A DNA stretch of 64,000 nucleotides from Escherichia coli (GCF_003019035.1 NZ_CP027447.1), one strand, 5' to 3'; numbered from the stretch's first letter, positions 12,298-21,866 are shown. Notes: generated by a model not told the origin, from the letters alone. Made by a program: numbers and translations.

Positions 12298-13044
12298 ATG
12301 ATCGTTTTAGTAACTGGAGCAACGGCAGGTTTTGGTGAATGCATTACTCGTCGTTTTATTCAACAAGGGCATAAAGTTATCGCCACTGGCCGTCGCCAGG
12401 AGCGGTTGCAGGAGTTAAAAGACGAACTGGGAGATAATCTGTATATCGCCCAACTGGACGTTCGCAACCGCGCCGCTATTGAAGAGATGCTGGCCTCGCT
12501 CCCTGCCGAGTGGAGTAATATTGATATCCTGGTAAACAATGCCGGCCTGGCGTTGGGCATGGAGCCTGCGCATAAAGCCAGCATTGAAGACTGGGAAACG
12601 ATGATTGATACCAACAACAAAGGCCTGGTATATATGACGCGCGCCGTCTTACCGGGTATGGTTGAACGTAATCATGGTCATATTATTAACATTGGCTCAA
12701 CGGCAGGTAGCTGGCCGTATGCCGGTGGTAACGTTTACGGTGCGACGAAAGCGTTTGTTCGTCAGTTTAGCCTGAATCTGCGTACGGACCTGCATGGTAC
12801 GGCGGTGCGCGTCACCGACATCGAACCGGGTCTGGTGGGTGGCACCGAGTTTTCCAATGTCCGCTTTAAAGGCGATGACGGTAAAGCGGAAAAAACCTAT
12901 CAAAATACCGTTGCATTGACGCCAGAAGATGTCAGCGAAGCCGTCTGGTGGGTGTCAACGCTGCCTGCTCACGTCAATATCAATACCCTGGAAATGATGC
13001 CGGTTACCCAAAGCTATGCCGGACTGAATGTCCACCGTCAGTAA
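12298..13044 (+). CDS. ydfG: NADP-dependent 3-hydroxy acid dehydrogenase YdfG (SDR family)
   Basis: From MIVLVTGATAGFGECITRRF; glycine-rich NADP site and YxxxK catalytic motif; 248 aa. Confidence 0.9.
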   Translation: MIVLVTGATAGFGECITRRFIQQGHKVIATGRRQERLQELKDELGDNLYIAQLDVRNRAAIEEMLASLPAEWSNIDILVNNAGLALGMEPAHKASIEDWETMIDTNNKGLVYMTRAVLPGMVERNHGHIINIGSTAGSWPYAGGNVYGATKAFVRQFSLNLRTDLHGTAVRVTDIEPGLVGGTEFSNVRFKGDDGKAEKTYQNTVALTPEDVSEAVWWVSTLPAHVNINTLEMMPVTQSYAGLNVHRQ

Positions 13045-13132
13045 TTTTTATACCCGGCGTAACTGCCGGGTTATTGCTTGTCACAAAAAAGTGGTAGACT
13101 CATGCAGTTAACTCACTCACAAGCAAGAACGA

Positions 13133-13819
13133 ATGACCGTCGAAACGCAACTTAATCCCACACAGCCTGTCAATCAGCAGATTTATCGTATTCTTCGTCG
13201 CGACATTGTCCATTGCCTGATTGCTCCAGGCACACCGTTGTCGGAAAAAGAAGTTTCTGTTCGTTTCAATGTGTCACGCCAGCCAGTTCGTGAAGCCTTT
13301 ATTAAACTGGCGGAAAACGGCCTGATTCAAATTCGTCCGCAGCGTGGCAGCTACGTCAACAAAATTTCCATGGCCCAGGTGCGCAACGGCAGTTTTATCC
13401 GTCAGGCCATTGAGTGTGCGGTGGCGCGTCGGGCGGCGAGCATGATTACCGAAAGCCAGTGCTACCAACTGGAACAAAATCTTCACCAGCAACGCATTGC
13501 CATTGAGCGCAAGCAACTGGATGATTTTTTTGAACTTGATGACAACTTCCATCAACTCCTGACGCAGATTGCCGACTGTCAACTGGCGTGGGATACCATT
13601 GAGAACCTGAAAGCGACCGTTGATCGCGTGCGCTATATGAGTTTCGACCACGTTTCTCCACCAGAAATGCTGTTACGCCAGCATCTTGAGATTTTCTCTG
13701 CCCTGCAAAAACGTGATGGCGATGCGGTAGAACGTGCAATGACGCAACATTTGCAGGAAATCAGCGAATCCGTGCGCCAGATCCGCCAGGAAAACAGCGA
13801 CTGGTTTAGCGAAGAGTAA
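13133..13819 (+). CDS. rspR: GntR/FadR-family regulator RspR (YdfH)
   Basis: 228 aa; N-terminal GntR HTH and FCD-like C-terminus; matches recalled YdfH. Confidence 0.85.
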
Positions 13820-13996
13820 TTCATTTCCTCTCATCCCATCCGGGGTGAGAGTCTATTCGCCCCGCCTTATGGCTCATGCATGCATCAAAAAAGATGTGAG
13901 CTTGATCAAAAACAAAAAATATTTCACTCGACAGGAGTATTTATATTGCGCCCGTTACGTGGGCTTCGACTGTAAATCAGAAAGGAGAAAACACCT

Positions 13997-14200
13997 ATGA
14001 CGACCTACGATCGTAACCGTAACGCAATCACCACTGGCAGCCGTGTTATGGTTAGCGGCACCGGTCACACTGGCAAGATCCTGTCGATTGATACTGAAGG
14101 TCTGACCGCTGAGCAAATCCGCCGCGGAAAAACCGTAGTTGTTGAAGGTTGTGAAGAGAAACTGGCACCTCTGGACCTGATTCGTCTCGGCATGAACTAA
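13997..14200 (+). CDS. ydfZ: Small protein YdfZ (putative selenium-binding)
   Basis: 67 aa [32 protein letters not shown]...; strong SD aaaggagaaa upstream. Confidence 0.85.
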
Positions 14201-14207
14201 GCGTGTG

Positions 14208-14237
14208 AATGCCGCCGATGGCGGCATTGCTTTTTTT
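14208..14237 (+). terminator. Rho-independent terminator after ydfZ
   Basis: aatgccgcc gatg gcggcatt hairpin followed by seven T. Confidence 0.6.
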
Positions 14238-15696
14238 ACTTCACGGAATATTTCGCCACGGTCGCTTTCGCACCATGCGCTAATAAAGACAAGTACGCTT
14301 CCGTCACTTTTGCAGTAAACAAGCTATTGTCTGGCAAATCATCACCAAAGATCGCCTTAATCGCCAGCAATGACTGGACGCGCGCTTTCCCTTCGGCACT
14401 ACTTTGTACAGCCTTCTGAATAACAGGTAACAGTGGGTCACTGATTTCTATCGGATTTCCCTGTTCATCAACACCACCGACATAACGCATCCAACCTGCG
14501 ACGCCCAGCGCCAGCAGATCGAACTTGCTGTCATGCGCCAGATGCCAGCGAACAGAATCCAACATCCGCTGTGGCAATTTCTGGCTGCCATCCATCGCAA
14601 TCTGCCAGGTTCGATGACGTAGCGCCGGGTTGCTATAGCGTTCAATTAATCGGTTAGCGTAATCTTGCAAATCAACGCCCTGCACTTTCAGCGTCGGCGC
14701 TTGTTCCTGCAACATCAAGGCATACGCTGCATGACGATAATGTTCATCTTCCATGCAGTCATTAATGTGCTGATATCCGGCAAGATAACCCAGATACGCC
14801 AGGAATGAATGACTGCCGTTGAGCATGCGCAACTTCATCTCTTCATAAGGCAGCACATCACTAACCAGTTCGGCTCCCGCTTTTTCCCATTCCGGACGTC
14901 CGGCAACAAAGTTATCTTCTATTACCCACTGGCGGAAAGGTTCACAGGCAACGCCAGCAGGATCGCGCACACCGGTAAGTTGTTCGATTTTCGCCAGCGT
15001 ATCCTCTGTCACTGCGGGCACAATACGGTCCACCATTGTTGATGGGAAAGTCACGTTTTCTTCGATCCATTGTGCCAGTTTTACATCAACAGCTTGCGCG
15101 TAGGAAGTGACAACGTCACGCATAACATGACCGTTTTCTGGCATGTTGTCACATGACATGACGGTAAATGCGGGAAGTCCTGCCGCTTTACGGCGAGCCA
15201 GCGCCTCAACAATCACCCCTGTTGCAGTTTTCGGCTGGTGGGGATTTTGTAAGTCGGCAACGACCATCGGGTGATCGAGCATTAACTGTCCGGTCGCCGG
15301 AGAGTGGAAATACCCTTTTTCGGTGATTGTCAGAGAGACAATCGCGATTTGCGGTTCACACATCGCAGCCAACACGGTTTCTAAGCCATCAATCTGTACG
15401 TGCAAGGCTTTTTTAACGACGCCAACGACGCGAGCCGTCCACGCATCGGCCGACATTTCCGCAACGGTATAAAGATTATCTTGCTGTTGTAAATCGGCAA
15501 TTTGCTGTTCGCCGCCGATTAAATTGACCTCATAATATCCCCAGTCACTGAAATGTTCCGTAGCAAGAATATCGGCATACACACCCTGATGCGCACGGTG
15601 AAATGCACCAAAGCCTAAATGAACAATTCTTGGGGCCAGGTTATTACGATCATAAACAGGGAGCGTCGCTTTTGCTGATAACAAATTATTTCCCAT
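14236..15696 (-). CDS. ydfI: Mannitol/mannonate dehydrogenase-family oxidoreductase YdfI
   Basis: 486 aa; Rossmann N-terminus ([12 protein letters not shown]) typical of long-chain mannitol dehydrogenases; gene order matches K-12 ydfI. Confidence 0.8.
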
Positions 15697-15784
15697 AACA
15701 ATTCCTTAAATATAAATATGGCAAGCTACATGTTTTGTTATATGAATAAAAATCCCCTCTCCGGTAAGAGAAGGGATGGAGGAT

Positions 15785-17068
15785 TTAAAGACTTCTGGAA
15801 GGTTGCGCAGCTCTGACAACATGCGGTTGATCTTCCGCAGCGTCTTCCAGCGCACTTAAATCACGGTCTTTCACTTCTGGCATTTTCAGCGCAGAAATTA
15901 AACCAATCACTGAATATGCCATGATCATAATTGCGATCGGATACCAGGATTCCGTCATGGTGCAGAAAATACCCGCCAGGATAGGACCAAAACCGGAAGC
16001 GATAAGACCACCAATTTCTTTAGAAATGGCCATCCGGGTAAAGCGGTTTTTACAGCCGAACATTTCTGCCATGGTAATGTTTTCCAGAGCAAATAATCCA
16101 AGCACCGCACAGTTATGAATCACAATCAGTGCAACCATAATGGTGCTCGGGGCATAGCTTTTATCTACGATGATAGAAAGCATTGGCCATGCCAGCACAA
16201 TCGCAGAGGTATTCATAATAATATACGGGATCCGGCGACCAATTTTATCGGATAACCAACCAAGGAACGGAATGGTCATAAAGCCGAGAATCGAACTGAT
16301 CATCAATGCATCTGTTGGAATTGCTTTGTTAAACAATAACGTCTGCACTAAATAGCCTGCAAGGAAAGTCTGAATTAAACCTGAGTTACCAGCCTGACCA
16401 AAACGCAGCCCTGTTGCCAGCCAGAAGGATTTGCTCTGGAACATGCTACCAGCAGGTGCAGGTTTTGCTGTAGGTTGGTTGCTGTCGTTAACCTTCTCAA
16501 AGACCGGGCTTTCTTTCAGATTCATACGCAACCAGATAGCAAAGACCATCACGACAACGCTCGCCAGGAACGGTATACGCCATCCCCACGCCAACAGTTC
16601 CTCTTTACTGAGAATGAAGAACATAAAGGCCCAGATTGCCGTTGCGCTCAAGGTTCCGCAGTTAGTCCCCATAGCAACAAATGAGGAGATAATTCCGCGC
16701 TTACCTTTTGGCGCATATTCCGCCAGCATCGTACCGGCACCGGAAATTTCCGCGCCTGCCCCCAGCCCCTGAATAATACGCAGCGTCACCAGCAAAATTG
16801 GCGCAAACACACCAATTTGTGCATAGGTCGGCAGCACACCAATTAAGGTGGTACAGATCCCCATCATGGTGATGGTAATAAAGAGCACTTTTTTACGCCC
16901 TATTCTGTCGCCCATTTTGCCGAAAATAAATGCTCCGACAATACGTGCCACATAACCTGCACCATAGGTTCCCATTGCCAGAATTAACGCCATTGCCGTT
17001 GACGATTCAGGAAAAAATATTTCATGAAAAACTAACGCTGCGCCGAGCGAATATAACTGGAAATCCAT
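15785..17068 (-). pseudogene. ydfJ: MFS (metabolite:H+ symporter family) transporter YdfJ, 5'-truncated at the prophage junction
   Basis: 427 aa ORF begins MDFQLYSLGAALVFHEIFFP, which aligns to the conserved (E)WFDFxxYG segment at the start of TM1 in ProP/KgtP-type transporters, so roughly 25-45 N-terminal residues are missing; an in-frame stop lies two codons upstream and prophage DNA follows. Confidence 0.75.
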
Positions 17069-17671
17069 AATTCACAGGTGTTTTTTCCCATCCTGTGGTT
17101 TCCTTGGCGTTTTCTAGGTTTTTTCAGATAGTTGCATTTTTTAAAAAGCATCCTAAGTTCGATCTCAGTGTCTATCTGGGGCCTATTTCTGTCCCATATA
17201 TGCCCCAAAAAAACTCCCCAACAGATAAGTAGTTTTTTCATGGATTTATGCGTAAAATCAAGAACGGCTGGAAATCATTCAATACTCACACTATCGAAAA
17301 ATTTACCAGCCAACCGCAGCACGTTCTTGCATAAGGCGTGTCTGCGGTTTTTCAACTATTCAGATACATCACTCCCATCACATTCATTCCTCCGCATCAA
17401 AGGCATATAGGCTATATCACCTTGATATTTTTCTTTTTCAGATAAAAACTGTTATCTATGTATACTTTTAAACCCAATCCGTGTAGAGTCTCTGCATAAG
17501 ATAGTTTGCAGTTGCCGCTTCAGCTTGCGCCATAAACCGCCTGATTTTTGCTGCCACCTGTTAGCATTCCTGTATACCTGAAACGACAATGTTTATCTAC
17601 GAACTTTAAGAACACCCAAGATAAAAATTGTCAACTATATCATATATAACACATTACTAATTCGAGGCTAT

Positions 17672-17785
17672 ATGAACAGCATACTGATAATCACTTCTCT
17701 CCTTATCATATTCAGCATTTTTAGTCATGCCCTAATAAAATTAGGGATTGGCATATCCAATAACCCAGACAAAACCGATGTATAA
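17672..17785 (+). CDS. Hypothetical 37 aa hydrophobic peptide upstream of ydfK
   Basis: cgaggctat-ATG with good SD spacing; [37 protein letters not shown]; single predicted TM helix; AT-rich context just inside the prophage end. Confidence 0.35.
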
Positions 17786-17853
17786 GTCAACATATCCTGA
17801 ATCAGACATACAATATCGCAATGAAAATCAATAATATTTTAAGGAATATCTTC

Positions 17854-18087
17854 ATGAAATCAAAAGACACCCTAAAGTGGTTCCCTGCGCAGCTTCCTGA
17901 AGTAAGAATTATCCTAGGGGATGCTGTAGTGGAAGTAGCAAAACAGGGAAGACCTATCAATACCAGAACATTGCTTGATTACATTGAAGGAAACATAAAG
18001 AAAAAATCATGGCTGGATAACAAAGAATTATTACAAACAGCGATATCAGTTCTTAAAGACAACCAAAATTTAAATGGTAAAATGTAA
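17854..18087 (+). CDS. ydfK: Cold-shock-induced prophage protein YdfK (YnaE paralogue)
   Basis: ORF 17821..18087; from MKSKDTLKWFPAQLPEVRIILGD the 77 aa protein matches recalled YdfK. Confidence 0.8.
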   Translation: MKSKDTLKWFPAQLPEVRIILGDAVVEVAKQGRPINTRTLLDYIEGNIKKKSWLDNKELLQTAISVLKDNQNLNGKM

Positions 18088-18403
18088 TATAATAAACTTA
18101 CTTTTTTATCATTTTTCCACTTTAACAACATTTTGCTCCACTTTTCCACGACCAAACAACTTGAAATCTGGTTAAAATAACACGCAACACTATTCTTCTT
18201 CCTTGAGTCCGCCCGGAACTCGAAAAACAAACCGAGTTAAAGCCATTTCTCACAAAACCGATTTTGGGTCTCACCAAAATTACGGGGTTGCATACGCATT
18301 CGTTTATTTTCGAACGTGTACATACAAATATGCACAAAAATAATCAAAATTATTTTCTGAGATGCATTATGATATGAACACCAATTTCGTATAGAGTCTC
18401 ACT

Positions 18404-18994
18404 ATGTCTCGAATTTTTGCTTACTGTCGGATATCAACGCTGGATCAGACCATCGAAAATCAACGCCGGGAAATCGAAAGTGCAGGTTTTAAAATCAAAC
18501 CTCAGCAAATAATCGAAGAACACATTAGCGGCTCAGCAGCAACCAGTGAGCGTCCTGGTTTTAACCGGTTGCTTGCTCGCCTGAAATGTGGTGATCAATT
18601 GATTGTGACAAAACTGGATCGCCTTGGTTGTAATGCAATGGATATCAGGAAAACAGTGGAACAACTGACCGAAACAGGTATCAGAGTGCATTGCTTAGCA
18701 TTGGGGGGCATTGACCTGACCAGTCCAACAGGAAAAATGATGATGCACGTAATTTCAGCAGTCGCTGAATTTGAACGAGACCTTTTACTTGAACGCACTC
18801 ATTCCGGGATAGTAAGAGCCCGCGGCGCAGGGAAACGTTTTGGTCGACCACCTGTGTTAAATGAAGAACAGAAACAGGTGGTATTCGAACGAATTAAGTC
18901 AGGTGTAAGTATAAGTGCCATTGCCCGGGAATTCAAAACCTCGCGGCAAACCATTTTAAGAGCCAAAGCAAAACTTCAGACACCTGATATATAA
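18404..18994 (+). CDS. pinQ: Serine recombinase / DNA invertase Pin (Gin/Hin/Cin family)
   Basis: 196 aa; N-terminal catalytic serine motif YCRISTLDQ and C-terminal HTH; matches recalled PinQ/PinE. Confidence 0.9.
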
Positions 18995-19094
18995 AAAATA
19001 ATCTCGGTGTGAGATGCTTTACGTCTTCCAAGCCCCCTTCCTTGCCGTAAATGGAAAGATACATCTAATTATAGAATTTATATGTTTTACCCTA

Positions 19095-19210
19095 CGGCAG
19101 TGCTGGCCATTCAATATCCTGTGCAGTTGACGTATCAACACGGTTCAGCAATACCCGATACTTTTTCCATGCTTCCAGCAACGAGGTTTCTTCCTCCGTT
19201 GCATATACAG
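19095..19210 (-). pseudogene. 3' remnant of a tail fibre assembly gene (Tfa C-terminal domain only)
   Basis: Minus-strand frame encodes ...[36 protein letters not shown]-stop, close to the conserved Tfa C-terminus (lambda Tfa ...[33 protein letters not shown]), but the upstream part of the ORF ([12 protein letters not shown]...) is unrelated and overlaps the next gene. Confidence 0.6.
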
Positions 19211-19221
19211 CCCACCTTTTT

Positions 19222-19515
19222 TCACCCACGATTAACCAACAGCCAGACCAGCAGACACGCCACCACCGGCACAGCAAAATCCATCAGGCTTGCCACATCC
19301 CACGCGCGCGGATCAAAACCGCCCCACCACGGCATATTCATTCGCTTGCCATGCCCGAACATTTCAATCCAGCGATATTCTGCCTGGGTATGTTCACGCG
19401 CAATGAAGAACGTACAACCGGCTATCGCTCCGTAAGCCCAGTTTCCGGTAAAAAGACCAACCAGTATCTGCGCAGCCACAGCACAAAGTGCATGAAGTAA
19501 GGGGCTTATATCCAT
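19222..19515 (-). CDS. Hypothetical small membrane protein (about three TM segments) downstream of the tail fibre gene
   Basis: 97 aa; [39 protein letters not shown]... and C-terminal [13 protein letters not shown] hydrophobic segments; follows stf and the 92 aa ORF on the same strand with short spacers. Confidence 0.5.
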
Positions 19516-19527
19516 TATTTCCTCCTT

Positions 19528-19806
19528 TCAGCTCCATTCCCGAAGCGGTGTTTCCAGCTCCACGACATAATCAGAGAATACAGAAACATCAAACAAGTCA
19601 TCAAGAATGCGAATGTTGACAAAATAACCGTTATTCCGGATACAGACAGGTTCTCCCTCTTCAGTTACCCCTGTTTCTGTGTAGGTGAAACCAATTTCAT
19701 CGACTAACAGTTTATTCTGGAGGTCTTCATCTTCCTCCCAGTCAAGAGATGACAGGAAGGATTTAAACTCTCTGTTACCAGGAAATTTCAAAGTTAAATC
19801 TTTCAT
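19528..19806 (-). CDS. Hypothetical acidic small protein, translationally coupled to the tail fibre gene (possible fibre chaperone)
   Basis: 92 aa; start overlaps the stf stop (ATGA overlap at 19803-19806); acidic, no Tfa-like motifs. Confidence 0.5.
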   Translation of the reverse strand: MKDLTLKFPGNREFKSFLSSLDWEEDEDLQNKLLVDEIGFTYTETGVTEEGEPVCIRNNGYFVNIRILDDLFDVSVFSDYVVELETPLREWS

Positions 19807-21833
19807 ACTGCCTCCTTGATTTGCCTGTCATTTAATTCTTTAAACCAGACTCTGAAATTTCTGATGTGTCCAAACAAATGACGCGTTCCTGCTGCGGTCT
19901 GCCCACCAAACCGGTACGATGTTGCTGTAACTCCAAATATTTTACCATTAAGGTTTGTTGTATAATTACCATTGCATATTGCATTTACTGATAAATCAGA
20001 TTTAGCTCTCACACCCACAATGAACCTTTCTCCATCTGAGGAAATTTGTGGCTGAACCATTCCTACGTTGGCGCTTATCTTTCCTGTTGAAACAAACCCC
20101 AGCGATAAATAATTATCATCAATACTGTGCCCTCCAACATCAAATATCCTTGGCGCAACATTGGGCGGTGTACTCCAGTTCCTCCTTACTTCGCACAATA
20201 CTGTAAAAGGCCGTGTTGACAGGTTATTCGCCGAGGGGATAGTAACCACATCACTTGCGCGTGTTGTTGGCATTGTAGTTACAATAAATGACGATGCCGT
20301 ATTGCCCAGTTCAATTTGCGGCGTCGTCATGGTTAATGTTGAGTCATCATAGAATGGCTCATTACTTATTTTATTTGTCATATAAAAAGCACAGTTAACG
20401 GTATCAATGTCCGTATTAGCTGTATAAGTGGCCTCATAGTAGGTCCACTCGCCCTGTTGTTCAGCTTTGGCTGTTATAAGGGATGTATTACCGCTTACTG
20501 TTGCGATCCGGGTATCCAGATCAAGATAAGAGTCAGCAGAGAATGTATCTGTTCCACCAATAATAACTGAAACTCTTAACCTGCATCGTGCTTTAGCGCC
20601 TTTAACCCGGCACGAAAAAGTGAAACATTCACCACTTGCCAGCGGGAATCTGTCTGCTGCAACCACACCATGCACAGTATAGCCACCTGTTGTTCCCACT
20701 ATACTTTCCGTGGGTGTCACCGTGGCATAATTGAACCCCTGTTTATCAGTGCCAAATGTTTTATTCAGTGCGGAATGAACAGTCCATGAGTCTGGTTTAT
20801 TTGAGTTCCTCAGATAATTTGTCCTCTGTCCTTCAATCAATAAGCCATCGCGCTCAAATCGCGGTTCGTCAACTTCAGCAAGCTTGAGTTGGCCGGACTT
20901 ATTAATATACGTTGCTGTTGAAGCACGTTTAAACTTAACAATCTTGTCGCCTGGCATTGTTATTTCATCGTCACCAATAACAATCTTTTTATAAGATGGC
21001 GAAAAACCCGTAATCATATCCAGCGAATCGTTAAACGGTATCCACACATCAGGCAGCGGCGGCACTATATTCGCATAGGGCTCTGCAGTCACTTCCGCTG
21101 CGGCTTCTGCGCGGTCTGCCGCCTTTTCAGCTCGTGTCGCTGCCGACAGAGCCTCATCCTTTTTCTGCCCGGCCTTTGTTGCGTCTGCTGCGGCCTCCCG
21201 CGCTTTTGTGGTGGCGACTCCGGCATTTTCAGCGGCTGACTCTGCATTACGGCGGGAAGCCTCTTCACTGTCTGCGGAGGCTTCTTCTGACGCACGGGCA
21301 TTTGTCTCTGAACGTTCTGCCGCTGTTGCTGCGTTTTGTGCGGCTGTTTTTGAAGAAGCTGCCGCTTTCGCGCTGTTACCTGCATTCGTCTCTGATGTTT
21401 TCGCCGCGTTCCTGGACGATGCCGCTGCTGTTTCTGATTTCTTTGCTGCCGCTGCGCTCTGAGAGGCGGCTTCAGCGTTGCGTGCTGCTTCTTCCACCAT
21501 TGCCTCAAAACGACGCAATGCCTCCGGCATGACATCATCTTCCGTCATGGCACCGAGAAAATCATTCAGCGTACCAGGTCTGGAACCTTCATAGACGGTA
21601 ATGGTTCCGGCATGTGAAGGCGGAAAACCTTCAACCAGCAGGGTGACGCTGTACTGGCCATACTCGACATCCATGCTGTAACGCCCGGCTTCATCCGGAT
21701 TTTCAGAGGCTACCGTGTTCACCAGTACCGTGGTGCTGTTACGCTTTGCCTTCAGTTGAATAGTGCAGTTCTGTATTGGTTTTCCCGCACCATCTTTCAG
21801 CACACCTGAGATTTTTACTGCTGCCATATCCAC
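19803..21833 (-). CDS. stf: Side tail fibre protein (Stf-like): lambda-type N-terminal anchor and Ala-rich shaft, divergent C-terminal receptor-binding region
   Basis: 676 aa; N-terminus M(DM)AAVKISGVLKDGAGKPIQNCTIQLKA... resembles lambda Stf; long Ala/Ser/Glu-rich repeat region (aa 120-240); C-terminal ~430 aa unlike what I recall for lambda Stf. Confidence 0.8.
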   Translation of the reverse strand: MDMAAVKISGVLKDGAGKPIQNCTIQLKAKRNSTTVLVNTVASENPDEAGRYSMDVEYGQYSVTLLVEGFPPSHAGTITVYEGSRPGTLNDFLGAMTEDDVMPEALRRFEAMVEEAARNAEAASQSAAAAKKSETAAASSRNAAKTSETNAGNSAKAAASSKTAAQNAATAAERSETNARASEEASADSEEASRRNAESAAENAGVATTKAREAAADATKAGQKKDEALSAATRAEKAADRAEAAAEVTAEPYANIVPPLPDVWIPFNDSLDMITGFSPSYKKIVIGDDEITMPGDKIVKFKRASTATYINKSGQLKLAEVDEPRFERDGLLIEGQRTNYLRNSNKPDSWTVHSALNKTFGTDKQGFNYATVTPTESIVGTTGGYTVHGVVAADRFPLASGECFTFSCRVKGAKARCRLRVSVIIGGTDTFSADSYLDLDTRIATVSGNTSLITAKAEQQGEWTYYEATYTANTDIDTVNCAFYMTNKISNEPFYDDSTLTMTTPQIELGNTASSFIVTTMPTTRASDVVTIPSANNLSTRPFTVLCEVRRNWSTPPNVAPRIFDVGGHSIDDNYLSLGFVSTGKISANVGMVQPQISSDGERFIVGVRAKSDLSVNAICNGNYTTNLNGKIFGVTATSYRFGGQTAAGTRHLFGHIRNFRVWFKELNDRQIKEAV

Positions 21834-21835
21834 TC

Positions 21836-21866
21836 CACAAAAAAGCCCGCCTGAACCGGCGGGCTG
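21836..21866 (-). terminator. Rho-independent terminator downstream of lom
   Basis: Minus strand agcccgccggttcaggcgggct hairpin followed by a T-run. Confidence 0.5.

Follow-up and report, generated by a model that had tools for sequence, protein, structure and literature searches.

The 64,000-nucleotide (nt) stretch of Escherichia coli DNA analyzed here (GCF_003019035.1, NZ_CP027447.1; the window) carries a full-length lambdoid prophage of the Qin type, whose late operon has a tail fiber cassette at its right-hand end. The cassette was found to consist of three pieces which evolve separately: the side tail fiber protein Stf, an acidic protein of 92 amino acids (aa), and a 97-aa predicted inner-membrane protein which is accompanied by the 3′ stump of a tail fiber assembly gene, tfa (Table 1). 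It is a further copy of an abundant kind that is already present in the databases, including in phage 21. The reading put forward here is that of a phage 21-type three-piece cassette, in which the 92-aa protein replaces Tfa as partner of the fiber tip and the 97-aa protein is of the exclusion type; taken as a whole, this reading is given a probability of roughly 0.45. What the analysis adds is a separation of the cassette into its parts; as a whole, the cassette is ordinary and very common in E. coli prophages.

Stf, the 92-aa open reading frame (ORF), the 97-aa ORF, and the tfa stump all lie on the minus strand, at the coordinates assigned to them in an earlier reading of the window which was made from the sequence alone (the sequence-only reading). 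The description in that reading proved accurate, but its evolutionary and functional interpretation holds in part only. The ORFs are considered real rather than products of chance, because all three proteins match PHROG families (E = 1e-39 to 1e-298), the 97-aa protein has many clusters of homologs, and the ratio of nonsynonymous to synonymous divergence (dN/dS) of its gene is 0.13. The separate histories of the pieces became apparent in a comparison of 80 E. coli prophage loci from IMG/VR. Across these loci the 97-aa protein is 92–100% identical, the tips beside it are 31–57% identical or, where the same allele is present, 97–100% identical, and the 92-aa protein ranges from 45 to 100% identity. 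A 92-type gene is found in 79 of the 80 loci, counting a diverged 89-aa form, and lies directly before the 97-aa gene in 21 of them; in 58 loci a second fiber gene (0.7 or 1.0–1.1 kb) is located between the two. The sequence-only reading had set conservation of the tip and both small ORFs as one unit as a test of its proposal. Such a unit was not borne out: T1- and T5-like phages have the 92-aa gene without the 97-aa gene, and the latter is near-invariant beside tips of 31–50% identity, after P22-type tailspikes, and after P2-type fibers, in addition to the 58 loci with an intervening fiber gene.

At the DNA level, a left homology arm (22000–21298) is 93% identical in most related loci, and their homology to the window ends inside the shaft of the fiber gene, at about 21298–21358. 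A weak island of homology follows at the start of the tip (about 21086–20790). Homology then resumes sharply at 19526–19528, 12 nt before the ATG of the 97-aa gene, with any upstream gene, even in the P22-like phage Gally. The closest known arrangement is that of phage 21 (OL657228, CPT_21_22 to CPT_21_24), where the same order of Stf, a 92-aa ORF overlapping the stf stop codon, the 97-aa gene, and the tfa stump is found. The phage 21 97-aa protein (CPT_21_24, called a 'putative membrane protein' in the record) is 100% identical to that of the window, the 92-aa protein 91%, and the shaft 99%, whereas the tip core is just 41–44% identical. The most variable core of the tip, about 19914–20815, is the sole stretch without DNA homology to phage 21. 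A second difference is that just 20 codons of the stump remain in phage 21, and that a sitABCD insert takes the place of pin after them (locus L003, 5314–6243). This insert, an iron/manganese transporter, is a cargo gene set at the same junction.

As the sequence-only reading had noted, no full-length Tfa gene is present directly downstream of stf; the last 36 tfa codons remain. They correspond to residues 156–191 of lambda Tfa, with 33 of 36 identical (92%), and were called by PGAP as a partial or truncated tail fiber assembly pseudogene. The same reading took this remnant to mark a recombination breakpoint. Positions 13001–19203 of the window are collinear with K-12 MG1655 (98.5%), from ydfG to the final 112 nt of tfaQ with pinQ in between, and since K-12 homology ends exactly at 19203, the right-hand junction of the cassette is exactly defined. 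The breakpoint thus stands, but it is neither local nor recent, as the junction between the 97-aa gene and the stump is common to phage 21 and to dozens of E. coli prophages whose tips differ widely. The stump lies 22 nt past the 97-aa gene in most of the loci that reach that far, and about 1 kb or more past it in a few. The recurrence of the same junction in most loci points to one old event which has since spread. Moreover, E. coli B REL606 and E. coli C contain an identical 3.5 kb stretch, from pin to stf, in their Rac prophages.

The stump has a dN/dS of 0.18 and a synonymous divergence (dS) of 0.46 among 24 alleles, one of which contains a stop codon. This synonymous divergence is threefold that of the 97-aa gene (0.15), which is in keeping with an import of the alleles from intact tfa genes, the stump being the right-hand homology arm. 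Repeated import by recombination probably accounts for the divergence, and a residual role of the stump is less probable. In the proposed course of events, an old illegitimate event would have joined the tip, the 92-aa gene, and the 97-aa gene to the 36-codon 3′ end of tfa; tips would then have been shuffled between prophages by homologous recombination via the two conserved arms, and the stump would now be a recombination arm and not a gene. A different origin has the stump as the relic of a Pin-invertible fiber segment of the Mu G or e14 P type, with the cassette as one orientation of a host-range switch. The serine invertase gene pinQ does lie 97 nt from the stump in convergent orientation. 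However, no flanking inverted repeats of at least 16 nt were detected apart from weak pairs at chance level, no gix/pix-like core was detected in the module, and the arrangement of stf, tfa, and a convergent pin gene without a second, inverted fiber set is the same as in K-12 Qin, which makes this origin extremely improbable. The pinQ gene is intact, and neither an invertible segment nor crossover sites could be detected near it; like the invertase genes of K-12 Qin and Rac, it is an 'orphan'. A fusion of the 97-aa ORF to the stump by frameshifting was rejected, as the two are in different frames and an open overlap of 25 codons is no more than expected by chance.

Stf itself is a mosaic in which a lambda-type anchor and shaft are joined to a foreign, exchangeable tip. 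The protein has 676 aa when read from a GTG start and 674 aa from the ATG at 21827 that is used by PGAP, where its product name is 'prophage tail fiber N-terminal domain-containing protein'. PHROG 3279 matches the N-terminus and PHROG 1419 covers residues 197–676 (E = 6e-298). The N-terminus had been described as lambda-like, which is confirmed by 73% identity to lambda orf-401 over residues 5–161, by Pfam PF08400, and by a match of residues 5–97 to the solved lambda Stf N-terminus (PDB 9e7m, E = 5.8e-49). The shaft had been described in the same way; it is present and Ala-rich, but residues 137–243 resemble the lambda Ala-rich shaft weakly. Past residue ~243 no lambda match was found, and the C-terminal ~430 aa are non-lambda, as had been proposed. 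Compared with Stf (orf-401/orf-314) and Tfa of lambda, the locus therefore keeps the N-terminal domain (73%), an Ala-rich shaft, and the last 36 tfa codons (92%), whereas its tip is unrelated and two unrelated small genes stand in place of a functional Tfa.

Within the tip, a domain similar to the head spike fiber of the Rhodobacter capsulatus gene transfer agent (GTA) was recognized above the curated cut-off of NF048003 (Stf residues 332–526; E = 3.5e-18, 66.8 bits against a cut-off of 36). It differs in its setting, being placed on a tail fiber shaft here and on a capsid spike in the GTA. Pfam CBM_4_9 also gave a weak match. The GTA-like domain is presumed to bind carbohydrate, and the tip may bind a surface glycan (lipopolysaccharide (LPS), O-antigen, or capsule), given the domain family and the BASEL work on lateral fibers homologous to this tip, which are thought to bind O-antigen (PMC8594841).

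The 92-aa protein is strongly acidic (isoelectric point 4.08; 21 Asp and Glu versus 8 Lys and Arg). Both small ORFs had been described as translationally coupled. For the 92-aa ORF this is supported, as its ATG overlaps the stf stop codon (ATGA) with AGGAGG 5 nt upstream; the 97-aa ORF is closely spaced but does not overlap, beginning 12 nt past the 92-aa stop codon behind a GGAGG site. No significant match to the 92-aa ORF was found in Pfam or NCBIfam, and neither its sequence nor its fold is similar to the known fiber chaperones (Tfa, gp38, gp57A, S74 domain). It was modeled by AlphaFold2 with a mean predicted local distance difference test (pLDDT) score of 91 as a β-α-α-β-β fold. Its PHROG family, 1361, contains 143 phage records, every one of which abuts a tail fiber gene, and its carriers include virulent T1-like, Queuovirinae, and T5-like phages. 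For example, T1-like tonn (gp58–60) and T5-like IrisVonRoten (Bas32; bas32_0022–0024) have tips that are 30–47% identical and a 92-aa gene that is 47–49% identical and overlaps the fiber stop codon. These phages differ in their N-terminal anchors, contain a further fiber gene after the 92-aa gene, and have neither the 97-aa gene nor the tfa stump. Based on this family distribution, the 92-aa protein appears to be the cognate small partner of this class of fiber tip, in temperate and virulent phages alike.

As for what it does for the tip, the 92-aa protein would be a helper, either a chaperone or a distal adaptor, and would replace Tfa in this capacity. A role as folding chaperone of the tip is held at about even odds. 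The other role, somewhat less probable and yet a serious candidate, is that of a structural adaptor in the virion which docks a second, distal fiber to give a branched fiber, in which case the protein in this window, where the second fiber gene is absent, would be a leftover. This is consistent with the second fiber gene that directly follows the 92-aa gene in 58 of the 80 prophage loci and in the T1- and T5-like phages, with a conserved N-terminal stretch of about 40 aa that the second-fiber proteins have in common, and with the label 'tail fiber protein' given to the 92-aa homolog in a BASEL record. Conversely, 21 of the 80 loci and the viable phage 21 have no second fiber gene, and yet their 92-aa gene is intact and conserved; in addition, the 92-aa gene is translationally coupled to stf, as is typical of fiber chaperones. 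The papers on the branched fibers LtfA/LtfB of DT57C do not mention the 92-aa homolog. The second fiber gene is either of the PHROG 4563 type or of a 227-aa type (L006, 4292–5329; L020, 5307–5990; L007, 4292–4966). By eye, the C-terminus of the 227-aa type resembles the S74 intramolecular chaperone. The 345-aa second fiber of L006 and tonn gp60 (L007) have the ~40-aa N-terminal stretch in common, which suggests a docking module for branched fibers.

The 97-aa protein belongs to a large family, which forms 577 clusters when grouped at 90% identity and 339 at 50%. All the homologs shown are named 'hypothetical' or 'Ybl63', and none of those listed has a precomputed Pfam domain. The protein gave nothing significant in Pfam or NCBIfam, family and fold searches revealed no similarity to any known glycan-modifying family, and a fold search with its model returned its own family only in AFDB50 and nothing in PDB. 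Its gene is under purifying selection, as the dN/dS of 0.13 was obtained from 50 E. coli alleles, and this indicates that it is functional in the lambdoid setting. Across the family R40, E41, and W72 are invariant, and H8, Q44, A45, E46, R58, and P83 are at least 90% conserved.

The sequence-only reading described this protein as having three transmembrane (TM) segments. AlphaFold2 does predict three helices (4–23, 26–53, and 74–96; pLDDT 97); however, strong hydrophobicity is confined to helices 1 and 3, the hydrophobic part of helix 2 (25–39) is marginal, and two TM domains are given by TMHMM. In the model, a turn of two residues links helices 1 and 2 into a hairpin, which places the N-terminus and the 40–73 segment on the same side of the membrane. 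This segment contains on average 5.3 Lys and Arg (N-terminus 0.24, C-terminus 0.33), and by the positive-inside rule it should be cytoplasmic. The phage 21 GenBank record lists a SignalP signal peptide for this protein; conserved H8, Q16, G24, and G29 within helix 1 and the turn, together with the confident packing of helix 1, argue against a cleaved one. The protein would thus be oriented N-in, C-out in the inner membrane, with the conserved polar cluster H8/R40/E41/Q44/E46/R58/W72 at the predicted cytoplasmic face. Outside the cytoplasmic side, the model leaves just the two-residue turn and the last 1–3 residues, so the protein would probably work at the inner membrane from the cytoplasmic side.

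The 97-aa gene is widespread. A 307-nt segment containing it was found in 1908 of 5426 complete E. coli genomes (3936 copies; median 2 per genome, maximum 7), and its carriers include siphoviruses, podoviruses, myoviruses, and phages with diversity-generating retroelements across Proteobacteria. Among cultured coliphages, full-length copies are found in lambdoid and P22-like phages only. Its usual position is after the receptor-binding genes, whichever of these comes last. The gene upstream is a tailspike in the P22-like phage Gally, a Tfa-like gene in Halomonas phiHAP-1, an 875-aa fiber in an Aeromonas P2/HP1-like prophage, a 2520-aa J-like protein in a Comamonas prophage, and baseplate J/I-like genes in a Caldimonas prophage. 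In a Pigmentiphaga humi prophage (L190, 5896–8353) the homolog is located between a putative Mtd-like receptor-binding gene and the avd and reverse transcriptase genes of a diversity-generating retroelement, neighbors which were recognized by reading the sequences and not by family search. One Aeromonas chromosome contains a homolog outside any recognizable prophage, near two lipid A acyltransferase genes. In the virulent coliphage HC6 a decayed, frame-broken copy lies right after the tailspike gene (L098, 3465–3620), which suggests that receptor-binding modules pass from temperate phages into virulent ones, with subsequent loss of the membrane gene.

Searches of IMG/VR with single distant homologs returned 0–2 loci, and an alignment of the GRExAQAE subfamily was used to collect a diverse set. 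This contains 89 loci, 80 of them environmental viral contigs, for which ORFs were called and clustered anew. A large fiber or spike is usually found just upstream of the 97-aa gene, and a pectate-lyase-like cluster (PF12708) is located within three genes upstream in 54 loci. Within four genes downstream, an endolysin-like gene is found in 26 loci and small TM proteins, including a PHROG 2359 holin, in 39. An exact-motif scan of genome contigs for GREHAQAE gave seven loci; the three that were examined are prophage tail regions, and the other four are fragments or partial matches. PHROG 3108, a family of 'unknown function', adjoins TM proteins and the 97-aa homolog in the Comamonas prophage and in an Aeromonas phage (L089, 6300–7521; L097, 2499–3496). 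Its motif GLQESR...FxQFE is lytic transglycosylase-like, and on this basis it is probably an unannotated endolysin family.

In the mechanism preferred here, the 97-aa gene would be expressed together with the late genes, and its product would insert into the inner membrane N-in, C-out, and from there guard the carrier cell against further phage attack, either by blocking genome entry in the manner of SieA or by interfering with lipid-linked glycan synthesis. It would neither mask an outer-membrane receptor nor be matched to this tip. An inner-membrane exclusion factor, with entry block included, is the leading guess, although a tentative one; in rough likelihood it is placed ahead of a lysis protein, which is itself ahead of a modifier of glycans or lipid carriers, and something else makes up the remainder. 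Two points speak for exclusion or conversion: the carriers are biased toward temperate phages, and there is a precedent in P22 SieA, a small inner-membrane protein of a temperate phage, with three predicted TM segments, which blocks DNA injection (PMC10883804). SieA is the nearest functional analog for this role. It differs in its length (162–164 aa), in its location in the immI region rather than after a receptor-binding gene, in its expression from the prophage, and in its specificity for P22-like phages, and no sequence relationship between SieA and the 97-aa protein was detected. A bolder and rather doubtful version has the 97-aa protein as the first representative of a class of phage accessory proteins that is very widespread and as yet undescribed: three-helix inner-membrane proteins with a cytoplasm-facing H/RE/QAE/R/W site, which would act in broad, receptor-independent phage exclusion or rewire the synthesis of envelope glycans by a mechanism unlike those of Llp/Cor, Imm, SieA, and gp15.

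Several observations weigh against an exclusion-type protein and against the cassette reading of which it is part. In many environmental phages, the genes that come next after the 97-aa gene encode small TM proteins and an endolysin. The homolog of Aeromonas phage 62AhydR11PP comes after a pair formed by an endolysin-like gene and a TM protein, with no fiber gene identified among the unannotated genes upstream, and this order suggests lysis rather than exclusion. No conserved promoter was found in the 97-aa module, and together with the hairpin that precedes stf this means that expression in the lysogen, which exclusion needs, is not evident. Strong conservation across Proteobacteria is unusual for exclusion proteins. 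A PADLOC search at E ≤ 1 gave no match for the 97-aa protein, the PHROGs that it matches are of unknown function and include no defense or exclusion family, and literature searches by protein accession and by name returned nothing on the function of Stf or of either small protein. The topology is based on AlphaFold2, hydropathy, and charge bias, and the TMHMM count of two TM domains, which comes from the phage 21 record, does not agree with it. Finally, the phage 21 92-aa protein is 91% identical beside a tip that is only 41–44% identical, and co-variation of the 92-aa protein with the tip is therefore imperfect.

The sequence-only reading pointed to receptor masking and made the 97-aa ORF a candidate exclusion or immunity factor, of which the broader idea, exclusion or immunity of some kind, is the leading guess here. 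Llp of T5 and Cor of phi80/T1 would be the analogs of a masking factor. The genes for Llp and Cor are accessory genes which adjoin receptor-binding protein genes, and the 97-aa gene likewise comes right after receptor-binding genes. Llp and Cor, however, are outer-membrane lipoproteins with a signal peptide and lipobox, each directed at one receptor, whereas the 97-aa protein is predicted to reside in the inner membrane and has no lipobox of the form [LVI][ASTVI][GAS]C (H-A-L precede C11, which is not conserved). Its predicted topology exposes almost nothing to the periplasm. Moreover, there is no co-variation with the tips (92–100% identity against 31–50%), and the gene is found after unrelated spikes and fibers. 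A masking factor cognate to this tip is thus very improbable. A lysis protein (a holin, antiholin, or lysis-timing factor) is the main rival of exclusion; it is unlikely, though far less so than masking. The order of genes would then be structural genes followed by the lysis cassette, and the lambdoid 97-aa gene would be a displaced or second holin-like gene. The protein is small with 2–3 hydrophobic helices, and the endolysin-like genes and small TM proteins of the diverse loci (26 and 39 of 89; L095 and L100 are examples) fit such a role, as do the orders 97-aa homolog, TM protein, TM protein, PHROG 3108 protein in Comamonas and PHROG 3108 protein, TM protein, 97-aa homolog in phage 62AhydR11PP. 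Precedents exist in T7, where holin gene 17.5 comes after fiber gene 17, and in T4, where holin gene t comes after gene 38; both encode small membrane proteins and lie right after a receptor-binding gene, away from the endolysin. Against this, the 97-aa gene keeps to the receptor-binding genes where the lysis cassette is located elsewhere (lambdoid, P22-like, and P2-like phages), and, unlike in the 26 diverse loci, no endolysin gene is near it in the phages of E. coli or in those of the P22-like and P2-like types. An S-type holin is already present in the lambdoid hosts, where it is essD in this prophage, and the environmental cassettes hold separate holin-like genes. The protein matches no holin family in Pfam or PHROGs, ends in 'VNRG' without a charged C-terminal tail, and lacks a dual-start motif, and its strongly conserved cytoplasmic polar motif is atypical of holins. 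The virulent phage HC6, furthermore, has a decayed copy only.

Less probable again than lysis is a small enzyme or inhibitor that acts on lipid-linked envelope precursors (O-antigen, capsule, enterobacterial common antigen, or lipid A) and brings about lysogenic conversion, like the small membrane proteins encoded after the tailspike genes of seroconverting phages. The neighbors of the 97-aa gene are of glycan-binding or -cleaving types (pectate-lyase-like spikes, GTA-spike-fiber-like tips, and the P22-type tailspike), and its invariant H/R/E/Q/E/R/W cluster at the cytoplasmic interface resembles a site for binding or catalysis. The conservation of the protein across Proteobacteria agrees with a host target that is itself conserved, and the Aeromonas chromosomal homolog is found near the two lipid A acyltransferase genes. 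Nevertheless, the protein is not similar to known glycan-modifying families, the single chromosomal context is possibly a coincidence, and the gene has no promoter of its own for expression in the lysogen. Tail-assembly-interference (Tai) systems, which are encoded elsewhere, upstream of the packaging genes, are unrelated.

The pair of tip and 92-aa protein moves between temperate and virulent coliphages and is the unit to transplant in host-range engineering. About one in three complete E. coli genomes contains the 97-aa membrane gene, and often there is more than one copy. Should it prove to be an exclusion, conversion, or lysis factor, thousands of 'hypothetical proteins' would be annotated at once, and its role could bear on phage therapy and typing of E. 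coli.

Table 1. Features of the fiber cassette and its borders in the window
Feature	Position	Strand	Basis
stf, side tail fiber gene	19803–21833	-	676 aa from GTG; PHROG 1419 and PHROG 3279
Stf N-terminal virion-attachment domain, aa 5–134, lambda-like	21432–21821	-	Pfam PF08400 phage_tail_N, E = 7.8e-67
Ala-rich shaft, aa 135–262	21048–21431	-	Weak match to lambda shaft
Non-lambda receptor-binding tip, aa 263–676	19806–21047	-	PHROG 1419 and 5939
GTA head-spike-fiber-like domain in tip, aa 332–526	20256–20840	-	NCBIfam NF048003
92-aa acidic ORF	19528–19806	-	PHROG 1361, E = 4e-39
Left boundary of conserved 97-aa module, including GGAGG ribosome-binding site	19516–19528	-	DNA homology resumes at 19526–19528
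97-aa ORF, predicted inner-membrane protein	19222–19515	-	PHROG 1443, E = 2.4e-58; UniProt "Ybl63"
tfa 3′ stump, 36 codons and stop	19092–19202	-	Lambda Tfa match; PHROG tail fiber assembly families
pinQ, DNA invertase, convergent with fiber genes	18404–18994	+	PHROG 125; PGAP pinQ
Terminator-like hairpin between lom and stf	21844–21865	-	8-pair stem with 7 G-C pairs, then T run

The prophage spans about 17300–62200 of the window, from ydfK/pinQ to int/xis beside rspB. Its gene order was taken from the annotation of a nearly identical prophage in E. coli GF131. It begins with int and xis beside rspB, the Q-like ydfT, and the lysis genes essD, ydfR, rrrQ, and rzpQ. These are followed by terminase, head, and tail genes, by J, lom, stf, the 92-aa and 97-aa genes, and the tfa stump, and by pinQ and ydfK beside a truncated ydfJ. 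Thus stf comes behind J and lom, where the late operon ends, as is the case for lambdoid Stf. The hairpin between lom and stf is also annotated in phage 21, and with its T run it implies that stf and both small ORFs depend on antitermination of late transcription. None of the three proteins was matched by PADLOC. In its late half (16947–47058) the prophage is 99.8% identical to GF131, while the early half is patchy, only about 95% identical, and hence mosaic. Phage 21 and this prophage (essD/rrrQ) both have pinholin/signal-arrest-release (SAR) endolysin lysis systems, to which a link of the 97-aa gene is conceivable. Qin, the cryptic prophage of K-12, is what remains of such a Qin-type element.

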